64,000 bases of DNA from an uncultured Prevotellaceae bacterium (GCA_902795605.1 CADBLU010000065.1:2157-66156), one strand, 5' to 3'; counted from the first letter of the stretch, positions 5,944 through 24,886 are shown. Translations and numbers: made by a program. Notes: generated by a model from the sequence alone, not told the origin.

Positions 5944-6701
5944 GACAGGCCATGATTTTCGCCGCCGGCCTGGGCACACGCCTGCGCCCGCTCACCGACA
6001 CGATGCCGAAGGCGCTGGTGAGGGTAGGGGGGCAGCCTCTGCTCTGGCATGTGCTGATGCGCCTGCGCGATGCTGGTTTTGAGCGCATCGTTGTCAATGT
6101 GCATCATTTCGCCAGTCAGATAGTGGACTATCTAGACAGCAACAGTCATTTCGGCCTCGACATCCGCATCAGCGACGAGAGCGGCCAACTGCTGGAGACG
6201 GGTGGTGGCATCCGCAAGGCGCTGCCCCTGCTGGATGCCGGCGAGCCGGTGCTCATCCACAACGTGGACATCCTCAGCAATGCCGACCTGGAGGCTTTTT
6301 ACCTCTCGGCTAGTCAGGATCCGTCTGCCGATGCATGGCTTATCGTCAACGAGCGGTCCACCAGCCGCTATCTGCTCTTCGACAGCGACGCTCGGCTTGC
6401 GGGCTGGACCAATGTCTCCACCGGCGAGGTGAAGTCACCCTATCCTGAGTTTGACGCCTCTCTCTATACTCCGCTTGCGTTCAGTGGCATTCATCTCATC
6501 GCCCCCTCGCTTTTCCCCATGCTCTGTCAGTGGCCCGAGCGCTTTCCCATCATGGATTTTTATCTCAGGGAGTGCGACAAGGCTGTCGTGAGGGCATGGA
6601 AGGCCGACGGTCTCCGTCTACTCGATGTGGGAAAACTGAACTCGCTTGCGGATGCGGAGCGCTTCGTGGGTGGTCAGGGCAACGCTCGTCCTATACAATA
6701 A
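5940..6701 (+). CDS. Nucleotidyltransferase (MurU-like)
   Basis: [34 protein letters not shown]; ATGA overlap with the kinase. Confidence 0.85.
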
Positions 6702-10491: not shown

Positions 10492-11688
10492 ATGAAAATT
10501 TTACACACCAGCGATTGGCATTTAGGCCATGAATTTTACAATTACAAGAGAAAGGACGAGTTCGTCCATTTTTTCAGTCAACTGAGGCAGATCATCGTCG
10601 AGCATCAACCCGACGCCATGCTTGTCAGTGGAGACGTCTATCATTCCACTGTTCCTGACATCGCCACGCAGACCATGTATACGGAGATGATGCTGACACT
10701 CCATGAGGCCTGTCCGGAGATGGAGATAGTCGTCACCGCAGGCAATCACGACAGTGCGTCACGCCTGGAGATCGACCGTTCACTGTGGAGCCGTTTCCAC
10801 GTCAGGGTGGTTGGCGGCCTCTCACGCAGTGCCGACGGCGTCTGTTACGACGACCATGTCTTCCGTATCGGCGACAAGGGTTTTGTGGTGGCAGTGCCCC
10901 ATGTGTTCAAGCAGAATTTCCCACCCGCCAAAGTGGAAGGAGAAGACCGGCAGACCGCCTTCTTCAAGTCGCTCATGCAATATGTCACCGACCACAATGC
11001 CGGCGGGCTGCCGGTGGTGCTGATGGCCCATCTTGCTGTCGACCACTCGTCGGAGCGAAAGGTGTATGCGGAGGTGGGCGACATGGTCTATGAAGACGTG
11101 GGGGTGCTCGCCGACGGTTACGACTATGCGGCCCTCGGACATATCCACCGTCCCTCGCAGGTGCCCTCTGCCAGTACGAGGGTGAGATATTGCGGTTCGC
11201 CGCTTGCCATCACCTTCAATGAGGAGTATGAGCACTCTGTCTCCATCGTCGAGGTGGAGCATGGCCAGGCGCCTGTGGTCACCCCGGTGCCCATCGTCCC
11301 CTTGCGCGGGGTGCGGACGGTTCCCGACGGGGCGGTGAGCTTCGCTGAGGCTCTGGAGCTCTTGTCTGAACTTCCTGACAGTGATCCCTCTTATATACGG
11401 GTGAATGTGCTTGCCGACGAGGGGCTGCCCCCCGATGCGGTAGAACAGGCCCTTCGTGCGACGGAGAACAAGGCGTGCCGCTTCTGCCTCTTCCAGAAGT
11501 CAGCCGTCAGAAAGCAACGCTCCACCGAGGAAACCTTCGATGTGACACCTACGGAGTTCTTGGAGATGAGCCCCGTGGAACTTGCGCGTCGCTATCTGGA
11601 GTTCAGGGGCGATGTAGACAACGTGGAAGAACTGCTTGACATGATGAAGGAGACACTTGACTTAATGGAAATGGAGGAATCGAAATGA
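10492..11688 (+). CDS. sbcD: Exonuclease SbcCD nuclease subunit
   Basis: HTSDWHLG, SGDVY, AGNHDS, ALGHIH, YCGSP. Confidence 0.93.
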   Translation: MKILHTSDWHLGHEFYNYKRKDEFVHFFSQLRQIIVEHQPDAMLVSGDVYHSTVPDIATQTMYTEMMLTLHEACPEMEIVVTAGNHDSASRLEIDRSLWSRFHVRVVGGLSRSADGVCYDDHVFRIGDKGFVVAVPHVFKQNFPPAKVEGEDRQTAFFKSLMQYVTDHNAGGLPVVLMAHLAVDHSSERKVYAEVGDMVYEDVGVLADGYDYAALGHIHRPSQVPSASTRVRYCGSPLAITFNEEYEHSVSIVEVEHGQAPVVTPVPIVPLRGVRTVPDGAVSFAEALELLSELPDSDPSYIRVNVLADEGLPPDAVEQALRATENKACRFCLFQKSAVRKQRSTEETFDVTPTEFLEMSPVELARRYLEFRGDVDNVEELLDMMKETLDLMEMEESK

Positions 11689-14600
11689 AAATCAAGAAAC
11701 TTGAGATACACAATCTGGCATCCATCGGTCATGCCGAGATAGATTTTGAGCACGGTGAACTGGCAGGGGAGACCCTCTTCCTGATTACAGGTCCCACTGG
11801 GGCGGGGAAGACCACCATCCTCGACGCCATCTGTCTCGCTTTATACGATGACACACCGCGAATGACCGATGCCAACGAGAATAAAGAGTACTACACCGAA
11901 ATCGTCAATTCCGCCAGGGGTAGAAACGATGAACTTTTGGAAAAGGTATCCCTTCAGTTAGGCCATAAAGGGCAACTGCTCCGCCGCGGCACCTACGAGG
12001 GATGGGTTAGCCTGACTTTTGAGGCCGGCGACATCAACTATGAGGCAACCTGGAGCATCGGTCGCTCTAACCAACGTAGCAACGGCAAATTGCAGAGTTC
12101 GAAGCACACCTTGAAGCGTCTTTCTGACTTACAAGTATGGAGCAAGAAGGCAGAAGTGGCGGCGATGGTGGAGCAACTCACGGGCCTTTCTTTCGAAGAG
12201 TTTTGCCGCACCACCATGTTGGCTCAAGGCGAATTCTCCCGTTTTCTGCAAAGCAAGAAAGATGAGAAATCGAGTATCCTTGAGACCCTCACCCATACGG
12301 AGATCTATACGAAGTTGGGTAAGAAAATCCATGAACTTAAAAATCAGCGCGAAGAAGACTATAAACGGGCAGAAGAAGGCTTGAGAAACATCCGTCCGCT
12401 CACTGATGAGGAGATAAGTCAGCACAATGCCGAGATAGAGAGACTGTCGCAGGAGCACAACGGTGTGGGCAGCCGCATCCAGCATGCTTTTGACGTCCGT
12501 CAGTGGATGGAAACCGACATCCGTCTGAAGGGTAGGACAGAACAAAGTCAGAAGACCCTCTCCGAGCAACGCGCAGTTATCATTTCGCCGGAATACCTTG
12601 CAGAGAAAGCCGATATTGCAGATTTCGCGCTCACCATACAACCCCGCACCTGGCTCGATGATATCCGCGCTGCCATCAAGCGGCGCGAGCAACTTACCGG
12701 CCAGCAGTCATCATTCACAACCGAATATGAACTCTTGGCGGCCGCCATCATCCGGCTTCAGGCCGATCAGACGGCAGAAGAGACACGTCTGGCTGAGACA
12801 CAAGCGTGGCTCGACAGCCGGAAGGCGGATGCCGCGATGCTGACAAATGTGGGAGCTGTCGAGGTCAGACTGCGCCAGGTGTCGGAATACGAGGCCTCTC
12901 TCATACAGATAACGTCGAAGCGTGAAAAAAGCGTGGGACAGGTGGCCGTATCAGAGGAGGCCATCCACCATGCAGAGGAAAATGAGCGTCAGGCCTTCGA
13001 GAGTGAGACCAGGCAGAAGCAGCAGGTGGACGACCTCTCTGCCGCCATTGCCCGGATGGACTCCACTGGTGTGCAGCGCCTGCGCGAGGAGCTGCAACGG
13101 CAGACACAGTCGGTGAATGAACTGAGCGCCAATGTGCGTCTGCTTGAAGAAGTCCGCAAGCGTATCGACTTGGTAGAGAAAGACTACAAGGCGGAAGTGG
13201 AGGACAAGCAGAGGCTTGAGGCCGCCCTTCCTGAGCAAGAAGAACAACAACGGAAAGCCAGAGAGAATGCTGAAGAAGCCCAGCTCATCTACGATCAGTG
13301 GCATGAGTCTCTCGAAAAAAGTTTTAAGACGGCCCGTTCCTTGTTGCGTAAGAATGACACCTGTCCGCTCTGTCAGCAAAAGATAGAGCACGACCATGTG
13401 CCCGACCCCGACTATGAGACGGTGCTCGGTCCCATCTTCAGCCGTAGGGATGAATACCAGAAGAAACTGAACGAAGCGACCGCACGGTTGGAAGCCAGCC
13501 GCCGGGAGTTGAAAAAGACCGGAGATCATCTGCTCTTGACACAGCAGCGATGGGAGAAAGAGAAGTCGGCCTTTGACCGGCAACTGGAAAGAGTGAGGCA
13601 GTCATATCTTGCTGCTGAAGAAATGTGCGAGGCATCAGTGAGTGCTGCGGGAGCACAGCTGAGGGATGAGGCTGCCGTCAATGCCGGACTGGTCAATGTC
13701 CAGCAGTTGGACGAGCGTGCCCGGGTGCTGTTAACTGCTATCGACAGTCAGATGGAAAAGGTGAGGGCCAAGGAAGAAGAAATCCGTCAGGCTCAGCAAC
13801 AACTTGAGGTTGCCCGCAAACGACTTGAGGAGTTGAGCAAAAAGAGCAGCGATTCGCAGAAGAAAACGCTTCAGGCACGTCATCAACTGACATTGCTGCA
13901 GAACCGCATCGCTGACCTCGACCGCCAGATGTCGGAAACCAACAGACGTATAGAGGAGGCGAAAGAACTGCTGCGCCAGCAAATCACCTATCCCGGTTGG
14001 GAGGAAGAGTGGGACGCCAGCCATGATGCTTTTATCACCCGGCTCAAGGCCGACGGACAGCAATATGCTGAGACTGAGAAGACCCGCGCAAAATTGGCAC
14101 AGACGACAGAGAGCCGCAAGACGCTGATTGCCAATGTAGTCGGCCTACGCGATTCGGTAGAAGAGAGAGCACCCTTCGTCACTCAGGGACAGACGGCCAC
14201 CGGTGCCCGTGTCGACGAAGGAAAGATTGTGGGCAGGTGGCAAAAACTCTTTTCTGATGTCACCTCATGGAAAACAAGTATGGAAGAAACCGCCGAGACC
14301 CTGAACGAGAGACGCAGGTTGGTGGACGAATTCCTCGGTAGCCATCCCGCCATCTCTCAGGACCGGTTGAATGAACTTGCGGCCATGTCGAAAGAAGAGG
14401 TCGATAGGACAGAACGGAGGCACAGGAGCATCGAGGACGACATCAAAAAGCTCGAAGGCGAACTCGCTAACATCGTCAAAGAGCAAGAGCAGCACCAGGC
14501 GAGAAGGCCCGAGATAGAGGAGGGATCGACCATAGAGACCCTCAGCGATGCGATCAGTCGGATGCAGGCGGAGCAACAGCAACTGGCCACACAGATAGGG

Positions 14601-15194
14601 ACGCTGAAAGCCACCCTTGAGGAGAACCGTAAGACGGTGCTGCGCCATGAGCAGGCCCTCGCAGAGAGAGACCGTCTGAAGGCCGAGTGGGACAAATGGA
14701 TGCGGTTTCATGAGCTCTTTGGCAACAGTGACGGAAATAAGTTCCGCACCATCGCCCAGAGTTTCATCCTCCATCACCTGCTTCAGAAGGCCAATATCTA
14801 TCTCAGGCAGTTCACCGACCGTTTTGAGTTGACCTGCCAGGCAGGGTCGATCACCATCCTCGTGAAAGACAACTACAGCAACCAGACCCAATATATTAAG
14901 GTGTTGTCGGGTGGAGAGAGTTTCATGGTCTCGTTGTCCCTCTCGCTTGCGCTGGCACAATTGCGGCCCAATCAAAAAGGCGTCGATATCATCTTCATTG
15001 ATGAAGGATTCGGCACCCTCGACAAAGAGTGCCTCAATGCTGTGATGGACACCCTCGAGCGGCTTCACCAGATGGGTGGACGTCGCGTGGCACTCATCAG
15101 CCATGTCGAAGCCCTCAATGAGCGGATACAAGCCCAGATACAGGTGTCGCGTGTCGACCCGTCGCGGAGTGAGGTGAAAGTAGTGCGTAACTAA
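11685..15194 (+). CDS. sbcC: Exonuclease SbcCD ATPase subunit
   Basis: Walker A GPTGAGKT, long coiled coil with CPLC hook, LSGGE signature, FIDEGFGTLD. Confidence 0.93.
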   Translation: MKIKKLEIHNLASIGHAEIDFEHGELAGETLFLITGPTGAGKTTILDAICLALYDDTPRMTDANENKEYYTEIVNSARGRNDELLEKVSLQLGHKGQLLRRGTYEGWVSLTFEAGDINYEATWSIGRSNQRSNGKLQSSKHTLKRLSDLQVWSKKAEVAAMVEQLTGLSFEEFCRTTMLAQGEFSRFLQSKKDEKSSILETLTHTEIYTKLGKKIHELKNQREEDYKRAEEGLRNIRPLTDEEISQHNAEIERLSQEHNGVGSRIQHAFDVRQWMETDIRLKGRTEQSQKTLSEQRAVIISPEYLAEKADIADFALTIQPRTWLDDIRAAIKRREQLTGQQSSFTTEYELLAAAIIRLQADQTAEETRLAETQAWLDSRKADAAMLTNVGAVEVRLRQVSEYEASLIQITSKREKSVGQVAVSEEAIHHAEENERQAFESETRQKQQVDDLSAAIARMDSTGVQRLREELQRQTQSVNELSANVRLLEEVRKRIDLVEKDYKAEVEDKQRLEAALPEQEEQQRKARENAEEAQLIYDQWHESLEKSFKTARSLLRKNDTCPLCQQKIEHDHVPDPDYETVLGPIFSRRDEYQKKLNEATARLEASRRELKKTGDHLLLTQQRWEKEKSAFDRQLERVRQSYLAAEEMCEASVSAAGAQLRDEAAVNAGLVNVQQLDERARVLLTAIDSQMEKVRAKEEEIRQAQQQLEVARKRLEELSKKSSDSQKKTLQARHQLTLLQNRIADLDRQMSETNRRIEEAKELLRQQITYPGWEEEWDASHDAFITRLKADGQQYAETEKTRAKLAQTTESRKTLIANVVGLRDSVEERAPFVTQGQTATGARVDEGKIVGRWQKLFSDVTSWKTSMEETAETLNERRRLVDEFLGSHPAISQDRLNELAAMSKEEVDRTERRHRSIEDDIKKLEGELANIVKEQEQHQARRPEIEEGSTIETLSDAISRMQAEQQQLATQIGTLKATLEENRKTVLRHEQALAERDRLKAEWDKWMRFHELFGNSDGNKFRTIAQSFILHHLLQKANIYLRQFTDRFELTCQAGSITILVKDNYSNQTQYIKVLSGGESFMVSLSLSLALAQLRPNQKGVDIIFIDEGFGTLDKECLNAVMDTLERLHQMGGRRVALISHVEALNERIQAQIQVSRVDPSRSEVKVVRN

Positions 15195-15292
15195 ATAAGG
15201 AAAAGGTAGGGAAAACGCCTAAAAAAACAGAGACAGACATCGGTTAATCGAACCATTTTTCTTACTTTTGCATCCGACAAAAACAGAAGACA

Positions 15293-16804
15293 ATGCCAGA
15301 ATATACACAGAAGAAAAACAGCAAGCGGGCGACATCTCCGTCGCCCATAGATACCGGACTGGGGCACTTGCCACCCCAATCGCTTGAGACGGAGCGGCTT
15401 GTGCTCGGTGCTCTGATGATCGATAAGGATGCATTCACCGTGGTGAGTGAAATCCTCCGACCTGAGACGTTTTATGAACTCCGCAACCAGAAGGTCTATT
15501 CAGCCATCCAGACCCTGAGCATCAACGAGCACCCTGTGGATATGCTCACCGTCATCGAGCAACTCAAGCGCGACGGCACGCTGGAAGATGTGGGCGGACA
15601 GATGTATCTCTATGAGTTGACCGCCCATGTGGCATCGTCGGCTCATGTGGAATATCATGCGCGCATACTGGCCCAGAAATATCTTGCCCGCCAACTGATT
15701 TCCTATGCCAGCGTGATAGAGACGAAGGCCTTCGACGAGACCAATGATATCGAGGTGGTGATGCAAGAAGCCGAGGGACGGCTCTTCGAACTGTCGCAGA
15801 CCAACATGAAGCAAGACTATACGCAGATCGACCCTATCGTGAAGCGTGCGCTGGAAATCATGCAGTTGGCGGCCGCCAACACCGGTGGTCTGACGGGTGT
15901 GCCAAGCGGCTTCACCAAACTCGACGACATGACCTCCGGATGGCAGCGCAGCGACCTTGTTATCCTTGCCGGCCGTCCTGCCATGGGTAAGACATCGTTT
16001 GCCCTCTCCGTCGCCAAGAATATCGCGGTAGACAACCGCATCCCCACCGCATTCTTCTCACTCGAGATGAGTAATGTGCAGTTGGTCAACCGCCTCATCT
16101 CCAACACCTGTGAGATTGACAGCAAGAAGGTGATGAACGGTCAGCTCAACGACGCCGAGTGGGCGCGGCTCGACAAGAACATCCGTCTCCTCGACGGTGC
16201 TCCCCTCTATCTCGACGACACCCCCGGCCTGTCGATCTTCGAACTCCGCACCAAGGCCCGCCGGCTTGTGCGTGAGAAAAAGGTGCAGATTATCATGATC
16301 GACTACCTGCAGCTGATGAATGCCAACGGCATGCGTTTCGGCAACCGTCAGGAGGAGGTCTCCACCATCAGCCGTTCGCTCAAGTCGCTCGCCAAGGAAC
16401 TCGATGTGCCTATCATCGCACTCTCACAGCTCAACCGTTCGGTGGAGAAACGCGACGAGAACGACGGCAAGCGCCCGCAGTTGAGTGACCTCCGTGAATC
16501 GGGTGCCATCGAGCAGGATGCCGATATGGTGATCTTCGTCCACCGCCCCGAATACTATCGTATCTATCATGACGAGAACGGCACCGACCTCCGCGGCCTG
16601 GCACAGATCATCATCGCCAAGCACCGTAAGGGAGCCGTGGGTGATGTGCTGTTGCGCTTCCTGGGACAGTATACACGCTTCGCCAATCCCGACGAGGGCT
16701 ATGTGCCGCCTACCGCAGGCGGAGAGATTATCGGGTCGAAGATGAACGACCCCATGCCCGACGACCCGTTAGGCCCGCCACCTCCTCCCGACTCTCCCTT
16801 CTGA
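15293..16804 (+). CDS. dnaB: Replicative DNA helicase
   Basis: GRPAMGKT, FSLEMS, IDYLQL, LSQLNR, SDLRESGAIEQDAD; TACTTTTG box at 15263-15270; no intein. Confidence 0.97.
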   Translation: MPEYTQKKNSKRATSPSPIDTGLGHLPPQSLETERLVLGALMIDKDAFTVVSEILRPETFYELRNQKVYSAIQTLSINEHPVDMLTVIEQLKRDGTLEDVGGQMYLYELTAHVASSAHVEYHARILAQKYLARQLISYASVIETKAFDETNDIEVVMQEAEGRLFELSQTNMKQDYTQIDPIVKRALEIMQLAAANTGGLTGVPSGFTKLDDMTSGWQRSDLVILAGRPAMGKTSFALSVAKNIAVDNRIPTAFFSLEMSNVQLVNRLISNTCEIDSKKVMNGQLNDAEWARLDKNIRLLDGAPLYLDDTPGLSIFELRTKARRLVREKKVQIIMIDYLQLMNANGMRFGNRQEEVSTISRSLKSLAKELDVPIIALSQLNRSVEKRDENDGKRPQLSDLRESGAIEQDADMVIFVHRPEYYRIYHDENGTDLRGLAQIIIAKHRKGAVGDVLLRFLGQYTRFANPDEGYVPPTAGGEIIGSKMNDPMPDDPLGPPPPPDSPF

Positions 16805-16863
16805 CGGCCGTCCCATTTGTTCTGTTTGTTGCTGTCATACAGCAACATACGGAACGATGGCCG
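16805..16863 (+). terminator. Long stem-loop after dnaB
   Basis: Core TGTTGCTGT-cat-ACAGCAACA (16827-16847) with imperfect outward extension; no clear U-tract. Confidence 0.45.
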
Positions 16864-16909
16864 GCAAGGCCGCTTGCCACTCCCGACCAATAAGAGCGCA
16901 TAAAGCAAT

Positions 16910-16986
16910 TGTCTAAACTCCCAATCTCCCAAACTCCTAAACTCCCAATCTTCCAAACTCCTAAACTCCTAAACTCCCAAACTCCT
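16910..16986 (+). repeat. TGTCT head plus nine 8-bp AAACTCCY-type units
   Basis: Units run 16915-16986 (aaactccc, aatctccc, aaactcct...) and end 7 bp before the SGNH ATG. Confidence 0.85.
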
Positions 16987-16993
16987 AAATAAA

Positions 16994-17668
16994 ATGAGAA
17001 TCATATCAATAATAGTAAGTTCTTTTGTCTGTGTGCTGGCAGCCTGCGCACAGGCGCCTTCCATCTCCGTCCTTGGCGATTCCTATTCCACCTTCGAAGG
17101 ATACGTCACACCGTCGACCAATGAGATGTGGTATTACGAGGAGAGCGGCAACCGCACAGATGTCGACGACGTGACACAGACATGGTGGTGGCAGGTGGCC
17201 AAGAATGGCGGCTACAGACTGTGCGTCAACAACTCCTACAGCGGGAGCACCGTGGGCTATCGTGGCTACGACGGCAACGATTACTCTGACCGTTCTTTCC
17301 TCACGCGAATGGACAATCTGGGCAATCCCGACATCATCCTCATTTTCGGTGCCACCAACGACAGTTGGGCCGGTGAGCCGGTGGGTGAGTATAAGTATGG
17401 AGGTTGGACCAAGGCCGATTTCTATACCTTCCGTCCGGCGATGGCCTATATGCTCCATCATGTCGTGACGAGATACCCCAACGTGAAAGTCTTTTTCATC
17501 CTCAACAGCGAACTGCGTGATGATATCACTGAGTCGTGCCAGACCATCTGCCGGCATTATGAGGTGCCATGCATCGCCCTCCACGACATCCACAAGATCA
17601 ACGGGCATCCGTCGGTCAGTGGCATGAAGGCCATCGCCAATCAGGTGCTGGAAGCCATGCAAAAGTAG
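16994..17668 (+). CDS. Exported SGNH/GDSL hydrolase
   Basis: Signal peptide; VLGDSYS, SYSG, FGATNDS, GHPS blocks. Confidence 0.85.
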   Translation: MRIISIIVSSFVCVLAACAQAPSISVLGDSYSTFEGYVTPSTNEMWYYEESGNRTDVDDVTQTWWWQVAKNGGYRLCVNNSYSGSTVGYRGYDGNDYSDRSFLTRMDNLGNPDIILIFGATNDSWAGEPVGEYKYGGWTKADFYTFRPAMAYMLHHVVTRYPNVKVFFILNSELRDDITESCQTICRHYEVPCIALHDIHKINGHPSVSGMKAIANQVLEAMQK

Positions 17669-17757
17669 GGGCGCGCAAAAAAAAGTGATAATTTGTAGCG
17701 ATTATCTGCAAATATATGTTATCTTGACGCAAATCAAGTCAAAAAAGTGATAAATTA

Positions 17758-17789
17758 TTTGTCGGAAAGATGATTTATGATTACCTTTG
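17758..17789 (+). promoter_or_regulatory. Promoter of the leu/cim operon
   Basis: TTTG (17758-17761), 20 nt, TACCTTTG (17782-17789). Confidence 0.7.
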
Positions 17790-17813
17790 CAGCCAAATCA
17801 GACAAATACGGAA

Positions 17814-17897
17814 ATGGCAAACTGTTATACGATTATTATTAGCATTCTATCCATTCGACTGCAGCATGCGGCCGGAAGTGATGAATCGTGCGGATAA
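17814..17897 (+). CDS. Attenuator leader peptide, Ile/Leu-rich (MANCYTIIISILSIRLQHAAGSDESCG)
   Basis: ATG...ATT ATT ATT AGC ATT CTA TCC ATT CGA CTG...TAA, lying between the promoter and the terminator. Confidence 0.75.
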   Translation: MANCYTIIISILSIRLQHAAGSDESCG

Positions 17898-17922
17898 TCT
17901 ATGTGATTGCTAATAAGATACG

Positions 17923-17961
17923 GCCTTTCTCACTTCCCGAAGTGTGAAAGGCTTTTTGTTT
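17923..17961 (+). terminator. Attenuator terminator upstream of leuA
   Basis: GCCTTTC-t-CACTT cccg AAGTG-t-GAAAGGC followed by TTTTTGTTT. Confidence 0.85.
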
Positions 17962-18005
17962 GAATGGTATCATACTCCTGTATCGGAGTGAAAAATAAAA
18001 AAGGA

Positions 18006-19505
18006 ATGAACGACAGATTATTTATTTTCGACACAACACTGCGCGATGGTGAGCAAGTGCCAGGCTGCCAGCTCAACACCGTGGAGAAGATTCAAGTGGC
18101 GCGCCAACTCGAGCAGCTTGGCGTGGATGTGATTGAGGCGGGTTTCCCCATCTCGAGTCCCGGAGACTTCAATTCTGTGATAGAGATTTCCAAGGCAGTG
18201 ACCTGGCCCACCATCTGCGCCCTCACGCGTGCGGTGGAGAGAGACATTGACGTGGCGGCAGAATCGCTGAAGTATGCCAAGCGCAAGCGTATACATACAG
18301 GTATCGGCACCAGCGACTCGCATATCAAATACAAGTTCAACTCCACCCGTGAGGAAATCCTCGAACAGGCTGTGGCAGCCGTGAAATATGCCCGCCGTTA
18401 TGTGGAGGACGTGGAGTTCTATGCCGAGGATGCCGGCCGCACCGACAATGAATATCTGGCAAGGGTGATAGAGGCCGTCATCAAGGCCGGAGCCACCGTG
18501 GTGAACATCCCCGACACCACGGGCTATTGCCTTCCTGAAGAATACGGCGCAAAGATCAAATATCTGATGGAGCATGTAGACGGAGTGCACAAGGTCGTCA
18601 TCTCCACCCATTGCCACAATGACCTCGGGATGGCCACGGCTAATACCTTCAGTGGGATTGTCAACGGTGCCCGCCAGGTGGAGGTGACCGTCAATGGCAT
18701 CGGCGAGCGTGCGGGAAACACGTCGCTCGAGGAAATCGCCATGATTCTCAAGTGTCACAAGACGCTGGGCATCGACACTAATATCAATACGACAAAAATA
18801 TATCCCACCAGCAGGATGGTGTCGAGCCTGATGAACATGCCCGTTCAGCCCAACAAAGCCATCGTGGGACGCAATGCCTTTGCCCATTCGAGCGGCATCC
18901 ATCAGGATGGAGTGCTGAAGAATGCGTCGACCTATGAGATTATCGACCCCAAGGACATCGGACTCGAAGACAGTTCCATCGTGCTCACAGCCCGTTCCGG
19001 GCGTGCGGCCCTCAAATACCGCTTGGGTGTATTAGGCGTGAATATCGACGATGACCACCGTATTGACAAGATCTACGAGAAATTCCTGAAACTGGCCGAC
19101 CAGAAGAAAGAGGTCTCCGATGTGGATATCATGATGCTCGCAGGAGCAGATACGGCTGAGGCACACGCTGTGAAACTCGACTACCTGCAAGTGACCACTG
19201 GCATGGGCGTGAGAAGCGTGGCGAGCATCGGTATCGACATCAGCGGTCAGAAGTTTGAGGCCGCCTGCACGGGCAACGGTCCTGTGGATGCCGCCATCAA
19301 CGCCCTGAAGAAAATCATTCTCAAGAAAATGACTCTCAAGGAATTTACCATCCAGGCCATCTCCAAGGGTTCCAATGATGTGGGCAAGGTGCACATGCAG
19401 GTGGAATACAACGGAGGGCTTTATTATGGATTCGGTGCCAATACCGACATCGTCACCGCTTCGGTAGAGGCCTATATCGATTGTATCAACAAATTCAGAA
19501 ACTGA
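18006..19505 (+). CDS. leuA: 2-isopropylmalate synthase
   Basis: [35 protein letters not shown]-terminal regulatory domain. Confidence 0.95.
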
Positions 19506-19509
19506 GAAT

Positions 19510-20904
19510 ATGAACACACTTTTTGACAAAATATGGGACAGGCATGTGGTGCAACTCATCGACGACGGACCCACTCAGTTGTATATCGACCGCTTGTATT
19601 GCCATGAGGTGACCTCGCCGCAGGCCTTCGACGGAATGAGGGCACGGGGGCTGAAGTGCTTCCGGCCGGGACAGATTTTCTGTATGCCCGACCACAACAC
19701 GCCGACACACGACCAGGACAAACCCATCGACGACCCGGTGTCGAAGACGCAGGTCGACGCGCTGGAGCGCAATTGCCGTGAGTTTGGCCTGACACACTAC
19801 GGGATGATGTCGCCCGACAATGGCATCATCCATGTCGTGGGACCGGAGAAAGGCCTCTCGCTGCCGGGGATGACCATCGTCTGCGGCGACTCCCACACCT
19901 CCACGCACGGGGCAATGGGGGCGGTGGCCTTCGGCATCGGCACCTCAGAAGTGGAGATGGTGCTTGCCTCGCAGTGTATCCTTCAGCAGAAGCCCAAGTC
20001 GATGCGTATCAGCATCAACGGCCGTCTTGACCGCGGAGTGACTCCTAAGGACGTGGCGCTCTTCCTCATGGCGAAACTCACTACCTCCGGTGGCACCGGC
20101 TATTTCATCGAGTATGCCGGAGATGTGGTGAGCGACATGTCGATGGAGGGCAGGCTCACCCTCTGCAACCTGAGCATTGAGATGGGGGCCAGAGGAGGAT
20201 TCGTGGCTCCCGACGAGACCACTTTCGCCTATCTCAAAGGGCGTGAATACTCGCCAAAGGGAGAGGAGTGGGAGAAGGCCGTCGCCTATTGGAAGACCCT
20301 TCGCAGCGGTGACGATGCCGTCTTCAACCGCGAACTGACGTTCGACGCATCCGAGATAGAGCCCCGGATCACCTATGGCACCAATCCCGGCATGGGAATA
20401 GGCGTCACACAGCGCATCCCCCTTGCCGAAGAGATAGAGGAGGGGAGCAGGGCCTCTTTCAAGAAGGCTTTGCGATACATGGGTTTTGAGGAAGGAGAGT
20501 GCCTGCTGGGGCATCCTGTCGACTATGTGTTCCTCGGCGCCTGCACCAACGGCCGTATCGAGGACTTCCGGGCCTTTGCCTCCATCGTCAAGGGAAAGCA
20601 GAAGGCCGACGGCGTCGTCGCATGGCTTGTGCCGGGCAGTTGGGCAGTGCACCGCCAGATCCATGAAGAGGGGCTCGACGAGGTGCTGTCAGCTGCCGGT
20701 TTCGAGATCCGTCAGCCCGGTTGCTCTGCCTGTCTGGCGATGAACGACGACAAGGTCCCCGCCGGTAAATATTGCATCTCGACAAGCAACCGAAATTTTG
20801 AGGGACGCCAGGGACCCGGTGCCCGCACGTTGCTGGCCAGTCCGCTGATGGCTGCTGCCGCGGCGGTGACAGGTGTGGTGACCGATCCCCGCCAACTGAT
20901 GTGA
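19510..20904 (+). CDS. leuC: 3-isopropylmalate dehydratase large subunit
   Basis: [46 protein letters not shown]. Confidence 0.96.
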
Positions 20905-23144: not shown

Positions 23145-24206
23145 ATGAAACTAAGAATTGCCGTTCTCTCTGGCGACGGTATAGGTCCAGAGATCATGAT
23201 TCAAGGCGTGGCTGTCATGGATGCCATCGCAGAGAAATTCGGACATGAGGTGGAATATAAAGAGGCCATCTGCGGTGCACATGCCATCGATGAGGTAGGC
23301 GACCCCTTCCCCGAGGAGACTTTCCGCATCTGCCAGGAGGCCGATGCCGTGCTCTTCGCGTCGGTCGGCGACCCACGGTTTGACAACGACCCCACCGCAA
23401 AGGTGCGCCCCGAGCAGGGCCTGCTCGCCATGCGCAAGAAACTGGGCCTTTTCGCCAATATCCGTCCTGTTCAGACATTCCCGTGCCTGATTCATAAAAG
23501 TCCGCTCCGCGCCGAACTGGTGGAAGGCGCCGACTTCGTGTGTATCCGTGAGTTGACCGGCGGCATGTATTTCGGAGAGAAATACCAGGACAACGACAAA
23601 GCCTACGACACCAACTATTACACCCGGCCTGAGATAGAGCGTATCCTCAAGGTGGGCTTCGACTATGCCCGCAAGCGCCATCATCACCTCACGGTGGTAG
23701 ACAAGGCCAATGTGTTGGCATCCAGCAGACTGTGGCGCCAGATAGCCAAGGAGATGGAGCCCTCATACCCCGATGTGAAGGTGGACTATATGTTTGTGGA
23801 CAATGCCTCTATGCGGATGATCGCCGAGCCCACGTTCTTCGATGTCATCGTCACGGAGAATACGTTTGGAGATATCCTGACAGATGAAGGCAGTTGCATC
23901 TCAGGGTCGATGGGCCTGCTGCCCTCAGCGTCCATCGGCGAGTCGACACCCGTTTTCGAACCGGTGCATGGCTCATGGCCTCAGGCCACCGGACTCAACA
24001 TCGCCAATCCGCTTGCCCAGATTCTTTCCGTGGCCATGATGCTTGAGCATTTCGGTCTCAAGGAAGAAGGACAGATGGTGCGTGAAGCCGTGGATGCCAG
24101 TCTCGACGCAGAGGTGCGCACACCGGAGATTCAGGTGGACGGCGGTGGCAAATACGGCACCAAAGAAGTGGGCGCATGGATTGTGGAATGGATACGGAAC
24201 CGATGA
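23145..24206 (+). CDS. leuB: 3-isopropylmalate dehydrogenase
   Basis: [35 protein letters not shown]. Confidence 0.96.
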
Positions 24207-24886
24207 GGAGACTGATTGGCAGATTGTTTCTTCTGGTCATGGCCCTTGCCGTGTCGCCGGGCGCCATGTCGCAGTCGTATGAGGCATTGCGCGACTCTCT
24301 CGAGGCCGCTACGGCCATGGTGAAGAAGTTTCCCGACAACACCGACCTGAGATTGCGCAAGGCCTCTTGGAATATGCTCTTGGAGCAGTGGGATTATGCG
24401 CAGGCAGAGTATGACTTCATCCTCTCGCGTAATCCCCGTCAGGTGGCTGCGCTCTACTACCGTGCCTATACCTACGAGAAACAGCATAAGTATAAGCATG
24501 CGCGCGGCGACTATGAGGCGATGCTGAAGGTTGTGCCGGGCAATTTCAACGGTCAGTTGGGATTGGCGCTGCTCAACCAGAAAGATATGCACTACACCGA
24601 GGCGATGGATATGATCAACCGGCTCGTGGAGCAATACCCCGACAGTGCGGTGGCCTATGCCGCACGGGCAGGGATGGAGGCTGAGCGGGGACTGCTCGAA
24701 CTGGCCGAATACGACTTCACGGAGGCCATCAGGCTTGACCCCGTGTCGACCGACTATCTCATCAGCCGTGCCGACATCCGTCTGCGGAAGGGAGACAAGC
24801 GAAAGGCGAAGGAAGACCTCGATAACGCAGTGAAGGCGGGAGTGCCCCGCCCTTCACTGTCAGAATTCTACGCGCGCTGCCGATAG
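24203..24886 (+). CDS. Exported TPR-repeat protein
   Basis: Signal peptide plus TPR-like helices ([17 protein letters not shown]); ATGA overlap with the leuB stop. Confidence 0.8.

Follow-up and report, generated by a model that had tools for sequence, protein, structure and literature searches.

Sequence and conservation point to a leader-peptide attenuator for isoleucine and leucine ahead of a cimA-containing leu operon in an uncultured Prevotellaceae bacterium

The DNA analysed here, referred to as the window, is a stretch of 64,000 nucleotides (nt) from an uncultured Prevotellaceae bacterium (GCA_902795605.1 CADBLU010000065.1:2157-66156). In it, a leuA-leuC-leuD-cimA-leuB operon is preceded by a leader with a promoter, a short upstream open reading frame (uORF) and a set of alternative hairpins ending in an intrinsic terminator. 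It is highly probable that this leader is a classical ribosome-mediated leader-peptide attenuator of the operon and that it senses isoleucine (Ile) and leucine (Leu). The uORF and the hairpins are unannotated. The parts of the leader are as follows.

17758..17761, + strand: -33-like TTTG promoter element, read from the sequence, with TTTG or TTG at the same spacing in relatives
17782..17789, + strand: -7 promoter box TACCTTTG (Bacteroidetes consensus TAnnTTTG), read from the sequence
17814..17897, + strand: leader peptide uORF of 27 codons, MANCYTIIISILSIRLQHAAGSDESCG followed by a stop, read from the sequence and from homologous uORFs in relatives
17842..17863, + strand: region 1, which forms the 5' side of the anti-antiterminator (1:2) hairpin, taken from the minimum free energy (MFE) pairs and the conserved lower and inner stems
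17867..17891, + strand: region 2, the partner of either region 1 or region 3, near-invariant in 59 leaders
17922..17937, + strand: region 3 (GGCCTTTCTCACTTCC), made up of the 5' arm of the terminator and the first bases of its loop, able to pair with region 2 instead of region 4
17940..17953, + strand: region 4, the terminator 3' arm (AAGTGTGAAAGGCT), taken from folding and a conserved terminator helix
17953..17962, + strand: U-tract of the intrinsic terminator (TTTTTGTTTG), ~44 nt 5' of the leuA ATG

The promoter, formed by TTTG at 17758-17761 and TACCTTTG at 17782-17789, is of the Bacteroidetes -7/-33 type, and for that reason a sigma-70 promoter scanner did not report it. Its -7 box ends 24 nt 5' of the uORF start codon (ATG 17814), and no further TAnnTTTG box was seen in the window sequence between the terminator and leuA. 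The uORF runs to a TAA at 17895-17897 and holds five Ile and two Leu codons among its 27: the Ile codons, at positions 7, 8, 9, 11 and 14, are all ATT, and leucine is encoded by CTA at position 12 and by CTG at position 16. A first-pass annotation of the window had pointed out this promoter, the reading frame with its five ATT and two Leu codons, and the terminator, and all of them are present in the sequence as described.

Region 1 overlaps codons 10-17 of the uORF, including Ile11, Leu12, Ile14 and Leu16. Region 2 has a conserved core, CGGAAGTGA, at 17873-17881, and its antiterminator strand spans 17874-17891. The terminator stem (17922-17935 with 17940-17953) is interrupted by a single T-T mismatch and leads into TTTTTGTTT; a simple terminator scanner reported nothing at the leader because of this mismatch, while folding shows the hairpin clearly. 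The pairing on which the first-pass annotation had built its antiterminator also holds, since GGAAGTGAtGAA (17874-17885) is complementary to TTCTCACTTCC (17927-17937) with one bulged T; GGAAGTGA lies on the region 2 side and has TCACTTCC as its pairing counterpart. By RNAfold, the 1:2 hairpin (17842-17889) alone folds at -13.1 kcal/mol, the 2:3 antiterminator (17874-17891 with 17923-17937) at -18.3 kcal/mol and the 3:4 terminator at -17.2 kcal/mol. The whole leader RNA folds at -50 kcal/mol, with z = -3.8 relative to shuffled sequences.

From this arrangement we infer the following course of events. Transcription would begin a few bases 3' of the TACCTTTG box, and a ribosome would translate the 27-codon uORF. 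A shortage of charged tRNA-Ile or tRNA-Leu is expected to stall the ribosome on codons 7-16 (17832-17861), melting or preventing the 1:2 hairpin and leaving region 2 (17874-17891) free. Region 2 would then pair with the terminator 5' arm (17923-17937) once this has been made, giving read-through into leuA. If both amino acids are plentiful, the ribosome would reach the TAA at 17895-17897 and cover the 3' half of region 2, in which case the 17922-17953 hairpin and the U-tract would form and transcription would end 44 nt before leuA. Leucine would be made by way of LeuA and isoleucine by way of CimA-derived 2-oxobutyrate, both end products needing LeuCD and LeuB here.

Equilibrium folding with ribosome masks was uninformative for a kinetic switch of this kind and was replaced by folding of a transcript that ends before the terminator 3' arm, with the ribosome represented by a 30-nt footprint. 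In the transcript ending at 17939, the 2:3 pairing forms in silico with a ribosome on any of the codons from Ile7 to Leu16, and a ribosome at the stop codon, which masks 17880-17909, abolishes it.

LeuA relatives were scanned with one genome per species, giving 80 loci, which belong to Prevotella, Segatella, Bacteroides, Phocaeicola and numerous metagenome-assembled genomes from rumen and gut. We observed a homologous promoter-uORF-terminator unit in ~65 of these loci, 150-250 nt 5' of leuA. The consensus peptide is ...LN(I/L)xSIIIIRLRLQxVGGSDKVC for the Prevotella type and ...ILxLNISxILLAxxGGSxCxA for the Bacteroides type. Among 59 aligned leaders (alignment A1), 58 have a TAnnTTTG box 5' of the uORF start codon, in most cases at a distance of 20-31 nt, and 57 of these 58 have an upstream TTTG or TTG at matching spacing. 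Since promoter, uORF and terminator thus form one conserved unit, a transcription start downstream of the terminator is unlikely. A covariance model of the leader (R1), which is biased towards Ile-rich leaders, matches 51 of 301 Bacteroidales genomes in 40 genera; in the genome to which the window belongs it has a single match, the leuA leader. Given the z-score of the fold and the recurrence of the unit across the 80 loci, the element is evidently more than chance.

In most of the 15 relatives that lack the leader, a TAnnTTTG box is found ~25-80 nt 5' of leuA. Such loci include L003, L021, L028, L034, L042, L052, L070 and L071 (leuA start near locus position 1501), and in several of them dnaB lies directly 5', with the GDSL-lipase gene and the leader both missing.

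Three near-invariant blocks are found in the 59 leaders, namely TTCGACTGCAG, the region 2 core CGGAAGTGA, and CCTTTCTCACTTCC...GTGTGAAAGGCTTTTT. The terminator helix is 92% paired, and nine of its pairs are changed on both sides. In the 1:2 stem (17842-17889), the lower stem is conserved (UUCG with CGGA) and the inner stem shows compensatory changes. When the terminator and 1:2 structures are counted jointly, their covariation exceeds that of all 500 shuffles (0/500) and of every slid register. The antiterminator is 86.5% paired, compared with 38-59% for slid registers, and its per-sequence duplexes average -14.9 kcal/mol. Column by column it shows little covariation, as neither strand varies much, but the pair C89:G184 does covary (CG in 29 leaders, UA in 9) and is informative because G184 is a terminator loop base. 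The rare divergent leaders have changed both antiterminator strands together: L044 pairs UGCAGCGG with CCGCUGC, L024 pairs GGGGUAGUG with CACUAACCCC, and L018 pairs CAAGUGAG with CUCACUUG; L025 and L037 pair GGAAGUAA with U-ACUUCC, the terminator arm being without the matching C. Conservation of the uORF and covariation of the pairings were the checks that the first-pass annotation had proposed for its attenuation geometry. Conservation extends over the promoter, the uORF, the antiterminator, the terminator and the lower and inner parts of the 1:2 stem; covariation is seen in the terminator and the 1:2 stem, and the antiterminator outliers are compensated, so that this part of the annotation is upheld.

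The position of the stop codon is also constrained. In most leaders, the last paired base of region 2 lies 3-15 nt ahead of the final base of the stop codon, or the pairing contains the stop codon, as in the frame-shifted members. In these (L016, L062, L065, L066 and L076), the frame is off by one base relative to the majority, and the peptides end in ...SRK or GWK at a TGA inside GGAAGTGA, within the antiterminator strand itself. The nucleotides of the motif are kept and the 'GGSD' peptide is lost, and therefore the constraint acts on the RNA. The same members bear on whether the uORF instead encodes a functional small hydrophobic peptide, such as a membrane micropeptide, with the terminator merely ending its transcript. 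The leader peptide does have a hydrophobic core and a conserved length, as such a product would. However, its N-termini are highly variable, the C-terminal 'GGSDKVC' is lost in the frame-shifted members, rare or non-preferred codons are favoured, which is the opposite of what an expressed protein would show, and the unit always lies directly 5' of leuA or ilvD in the same orientation. A micropeptide is thus scarcely credible.

The amino acids to which an attenuator responds are expected to be those whose codons are concentrated where a stalled ribosome would free region 2. In 60 Prevotella-type leaders, a stall window of 13 codons, 12-48 nt 5' of region 2, was examined (772 codons in total). 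It contains 253 Ile and 188 Leu codons, or 4.2 Ile and 3.1 Leu per leader, and only two Val codons (2/772). The Leu just 5' of region 2, at the ...IRLQ position, is almost invariant. Codon choice is skewed as well: ATT makes up 80% of the Ile codons in leaders versus 31% in the adjacent leuA genes, and the rare CTA makes up 30% of the Leu codons in leaders versus 2% in leuA. Across the wider Bacteroidales, a leuA leader holds a mean of 4.6 Ile, 4.8 Leu and 0.4 Val codons. The numbers of Ile and Leu codons per Prevotella-type leader, together with their near-equality in the wider Bacteroidales, argue that the element is a dual sensor of isoleucine and leucine without valine.

The first-pass annotation had described the operon as mainly isoleucine-controlled. 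A strict form of that view, in which the leader is essentially an isoleucine-only sensor and its Leu codons are incidental, could draw on the five Ile versus two Leu codons of the window uORF, the runs of three to five ATT in Prevotella-type leaders and the way in which the Ile content of leaders tracks cimA (see below). We nevertheless consider it unlikely, since Leu ranks second only to Ile among the residues enriched in the stall window, is nearly fixed just before region 2 and is biased towards CTA, since Ile and Leu are about equal in the wider Bacteroidales, and since the first gene of the operon, leuA, makes leucine only. Isoleucine sensing therefore stands, while 'mainly' overstates it.

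If leader codons report on the operon downstream, they are expected to differ between operons with different products. In many R1-positive genomes the leader occurs twice, upstream of leuA and upstream of ilvD-ilvBN-ilvC. The ilvD leaders contain VV runs and hold a mean of 4.0 Ile, 3.8 Leu and 2.6 Val codons. Valine codons are thus high in ilvD leaders and low in leuA leaders, and so track the valine-making operons. A Val-containing paralogous ilvD leader is exemplified by MKFSISLILSLVIILVVKTSGK (L122, 259-410). In the genome of the window, neither the R1 search nor inspection upstream of ilvD revealed a second leader copy. Its ilvD-ilvB-ilvN operon lies on another contig (C258 of genome G000) and has, at L124 5749-5850 on the minus strand, a TAACTTTG promoter and a 5' untranslated region (UTR) of ~75 nt with a small hairpin; this 5' UTR is without an Ile/Leu/Val uORF and without a terminator. 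Further 5' of the ilvD promoter, between genes (L124, ~6020-6150, minus strand), is a run of short degenerate direct repeats with units such as GGTCCTTAA, AGCCCTTAA and GTCCTTAAG.

The relation between leader codons and the position of cimA was assessed with a sample drawn independently of R1, because of the bias of that model. LeuA was located in 111 of the 301 Bacteroidales genomes, and CimA was located as well; in the 62 LeuA-positive, R1-negative genomes, uORF and terminator units were then called de novo upstream of leuA. Leaders of operons that contain cimA (n=13) have 5.1 Ile and 4.6 Leu codons each, with a median Ile/(Ile+Leu) of 0.54. This median is 0.20 where cimA lies elsewhere in the genome (n=6) and 0.25 where it is absent from the genome (n=4). 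The difference between operons with cimA and the rest is significant by genome (Mann-Whitney, p = 0.0009) and at the family level (11 versus 7 families, p = 0.0018). Leaders of operons without cimA typically carry LLL or LLLL runs and are leuL-like.

The exceptions within these groups are informative with regard to IlvA. Both genomes in which an Ile-rich leader coexists with cimA elsewhere (G039 and G177) are without any IlvA. A long ACT-domain IlvA is present in two genomes with Leu-only leaders (G115 and G026), as it is in two CimA-less genomes (G152 and G006). G295, which belongs to the group with cimA elsewhere and was itself an R1 match, stays an exception to the association with codon content. 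Its leu operon (L180, contig C33, 3078-7963, minus strand) is without cimA, has a 439-amino-acid (aa) unassigned ORF between leuA and leuC, shows no leuB downstream and carries the Leu-rich leader MNDATFILLSLRLLCFQEQK; a CimA-like gene lies elsewhere in this genome, after a FabG-like gene, and there is no IlvA. No leader of their own was found for stand-alone cimA genes. A class-level sample from outside the Bacteroidales added no contrast group, as leuA there is mostly without a proximal leader. In that sample, leuA apparently lies inside larger operons, and the LeuA homologues are mostly ~390 aa long and without the C-terminal LeuA_dimer domain (for example G307:C4:501189-502331).

In the genome of the window, which is 91% complete, IlvA was not found. 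The best match, at 63 bits, is a cysteine-synthase-like ORF beside a ThiF-like gene. Because no IlvA was found in this genome and the operon has a CimA-like gene, LeuCD and LeuB are most likely needed for both leucine and isoleucine in this organism. The leader codon set is exactly Ile and Leu, the two products for which LeuCD and LeuB would be required. The link that the first-pass annotation drew between Ile codons and a citramalate route to isoleucine is therefore reinforced, Ile-rich leaders going with cimA in the operon or with CimA in the absence of IlvA.

Several observations weigh against these readings. The equilibrium fold of the full-length leader retains the terminator whichever codon is masked, and therefore the attenuator model depends on co-transcriptional kinetics. 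The 2:3 pairing (-18.3 kcal/mol) is stabler than the 1:2 hairpin (-13.1 kcal/mol) and is the MFE structure of the truncated transcript even without a ribosome; if the uORF is not translated, termination may therefore be weak or leaky here, departing from the textbook case. Where the 1:2 stem covers the Ile codons, in its upper part, conservation is poor (helix 68.6% paired). Bacteroidota do not rely on Shine-Dalgarno-led initiation, and no Shine-Dalgarno sequence precedes the window uORF, so that prompt and efficient loading of the lead ribosome has to be assumed. With 15 of the 80 close relatives lacking the leader and having a promoter directly 5' of leuA, the element is widespread but dispensable and appears to have been lost or gained repeatedly within Prevotella. 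The association with cimA comprises 23 heuristically detected leaders, has received only a crude family-level correction and includes one exception, G295. Finally, the ilvB and leuA leaders of Streptomyces coelicolor look similar and did not behave as classical attenuators (reviewed in PMC1262725).

The Streptomyces case and the formation of 2:3 in silico without a ribosome would also fit hairpins that act without translation, whether as a small RNA gene, a protein- or metabolite-binding or riboswitch-like leader, or a constitutive terminator or insulator, with the ORF incidental. The best-kept blocks (CGGAAGTGA and CCTTTCTCACTTCC) are likewise conserved as nucleotides regardless of reading frame. 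Such an element, however, would not explain why nearly all members have an ORF of 20-30 codons that starts with ATG and keeps a constant distance to the promoter, why its stop lies in or just 3' of region 2, or why its Ile/Leu codon set, with Val only in the ilvD paralogues, follows the gene content of the operon. The stretch from the stop codon to the terminator is not conserved among the 59 leaders. A cmscan of 17600-18100 against Rfam 15, with E up to 10, returned only four chance-level matches to unrelated families, with no match at the leader to riboswitch models, T-box, Bacteroid-trp (RF01692) or Leu_leader (RF00512). Translation-independent action is thus very unlikely, and ribosome-mediated attenuation remains the preferred explanation.

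We lean slightly towards the view that the leader represents an uncatalogued, Bacteroidales-wide family of branched-chain amino acid (BCAA) leaders, in which the codon set co-evolves with the use of the downstream enzymes. It would comprise Ile and Leu where LeuCD and LeuB serve in a citramalate route (cimA in the operon, or CimA without IlvA), Leu only otherwise, and Ile, Leu and Val before ilvD.

The genes of the operon, whose order was confirmed with NCBIfam models as the first-pass annotation had given it, are as follows.

18006..19505, + strand: leuA (2-isopropylmalate synthase), NCBIfam NF002086 at 729 bits (cut-off 532)
19510..20904, + strand: leuC, NF004016 at 712 bits
20929..21573, + strand: leuD (start not refined), NF002458 at 243 bits
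21552..23117, + strand: cimA-like second synthase (start not refined), best NCBIfam model NF042433 CimA
23145..24206, + strand: leuB, TIGR00169 at 428 bits (cut-off 353)

The leuA start, ATG 18006, agrees with that in relatives. For the cimA-like ORF, placed between leuD and leuB, the CimA model scores 619.6 bits, which is below its cut-off of 950, and LeuA models reach at most 347 bits; its Pfam domains are HMGL-like, HCS_D2 and LeuA_dimer. The ORF is thus probably an (R)-citramalate synthase. On the 5' side (window 11685-17668) the neighbours are an SbcC/Rad50-like ATPase of 1169 aa, a DnaB helicase of 503 aa and a GDSL-like lipase of 224 aa. On the 3' side, a TPR protein gene (24176-24886) overlaps the end of leuB by ~30 nt.

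The leader would provide a concrete regulatory mechanism for BCAA synthesis in Prevotella, Segatella and Bacteroides, where the regulation of amino acid synthesis is poorly described. Bacteria of these genera are dominant in gut and rumen, and their BCAA output has been linked to host metabolism. The match between leader codons and operon offers independent genomic support for the double use of LeuCD and LeuB in a citramalate pathway to isoleucine, and leader codons may serve as a simple predictor of pathway choice. If the family reading is true, the codon content of the leader would be a sequence-only readout of the isoleucine pathway in gut and rumen Bacteroidales species, and the family would be evidence for attenuation by coupling of ribosome and RNA polymerase in a phylum that initiates without Shine-Dalgarno sequences. 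A covariance model of the leader would also improve the annotation of thousands of genomes.

There is nothing unusual in the mechanism, as classical attenuation is a known class (trpL, leuL, ilvL), whereas the family itself is apparently uncatalogued, being found neither in Rfam 15 nor in the papers searched. A Bacteroidales leuA leader is not described in those papers, which do not include a 2004 comparative study that possibly mentions Bacteroidetes attenuators. In transcriptome studies of Bacteroides thetaiotaomicron and Flavobacterium psychrophilum, small ORFs or 'clues' for leader-peptide attenuation are mentioned, and the leuA element is not described. The modestly novel part suggested here is that the regulatory codons follow operon content, and hence the isoleucine pathway.

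Within the Bacteroidetes, Bacteroid-trp has been interpreted as a tryptophan leader-peptide attenuator, so that the mechanism class has already been proposed there. This family is catalogued as a cis-regulatory Bacteroidetes leader of amino acid biosynthesis genes and is not listed as a switch (RF01692; Weinberg et al. 2010, PMC2864571); it differs from the leader described here in operon, amino acid and sequence. Outside the enterobacteria, leuA leader-peptide attenuators with Term-seq support are known in Streptococcus (PASIFIC, PMC5314783). Together with the Lactococcus leu/phe leader (RF01743), these share the same terminator and antiterminator logic and, like the present leader, are unlike leuL in sequence. 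They are, however, Leu-run leaders of Firmicutes, whereas the present leader mixes Ile and Leu and is known from sequence alone.

The nearest functional analogues are leuL, which senses leucine only, and ilvL, which senses isoleucine, leucine and valine. In E. coli, the ilvL peptide of the ilvGMEDA operon senses several BCAAs, its codons matching the downstream products. The present leader is likewise multivalent, with codons that match the products of the downstream enzymes, but ilvL has Val codons and controls ilv genes, whereas this leader has almost no Val and controls leu and cimA genes; the Val-containing Bacteroidales counterpart is the paralogous ilvD leader of other genomes, absent from the genome of the window. 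Enterobacterial leuL uses the rare CUA Leu codon, as this leader does. It also lies directly before leuA and has a short uORF, 1:2, 2:3 and 3:4 hairpins and an intrinsic terminator (RF00512; PMC5314783). In contrast to leuL, with its four consecutive Leu codons, the present leader combines an Ile run with Leu codons, has a TAnnTTTG promoter and no Shine-Dalgarno sequence before its uORF, precedes an operon that contains cimA, and bears no sequence or covariance-model similarity to leuL.

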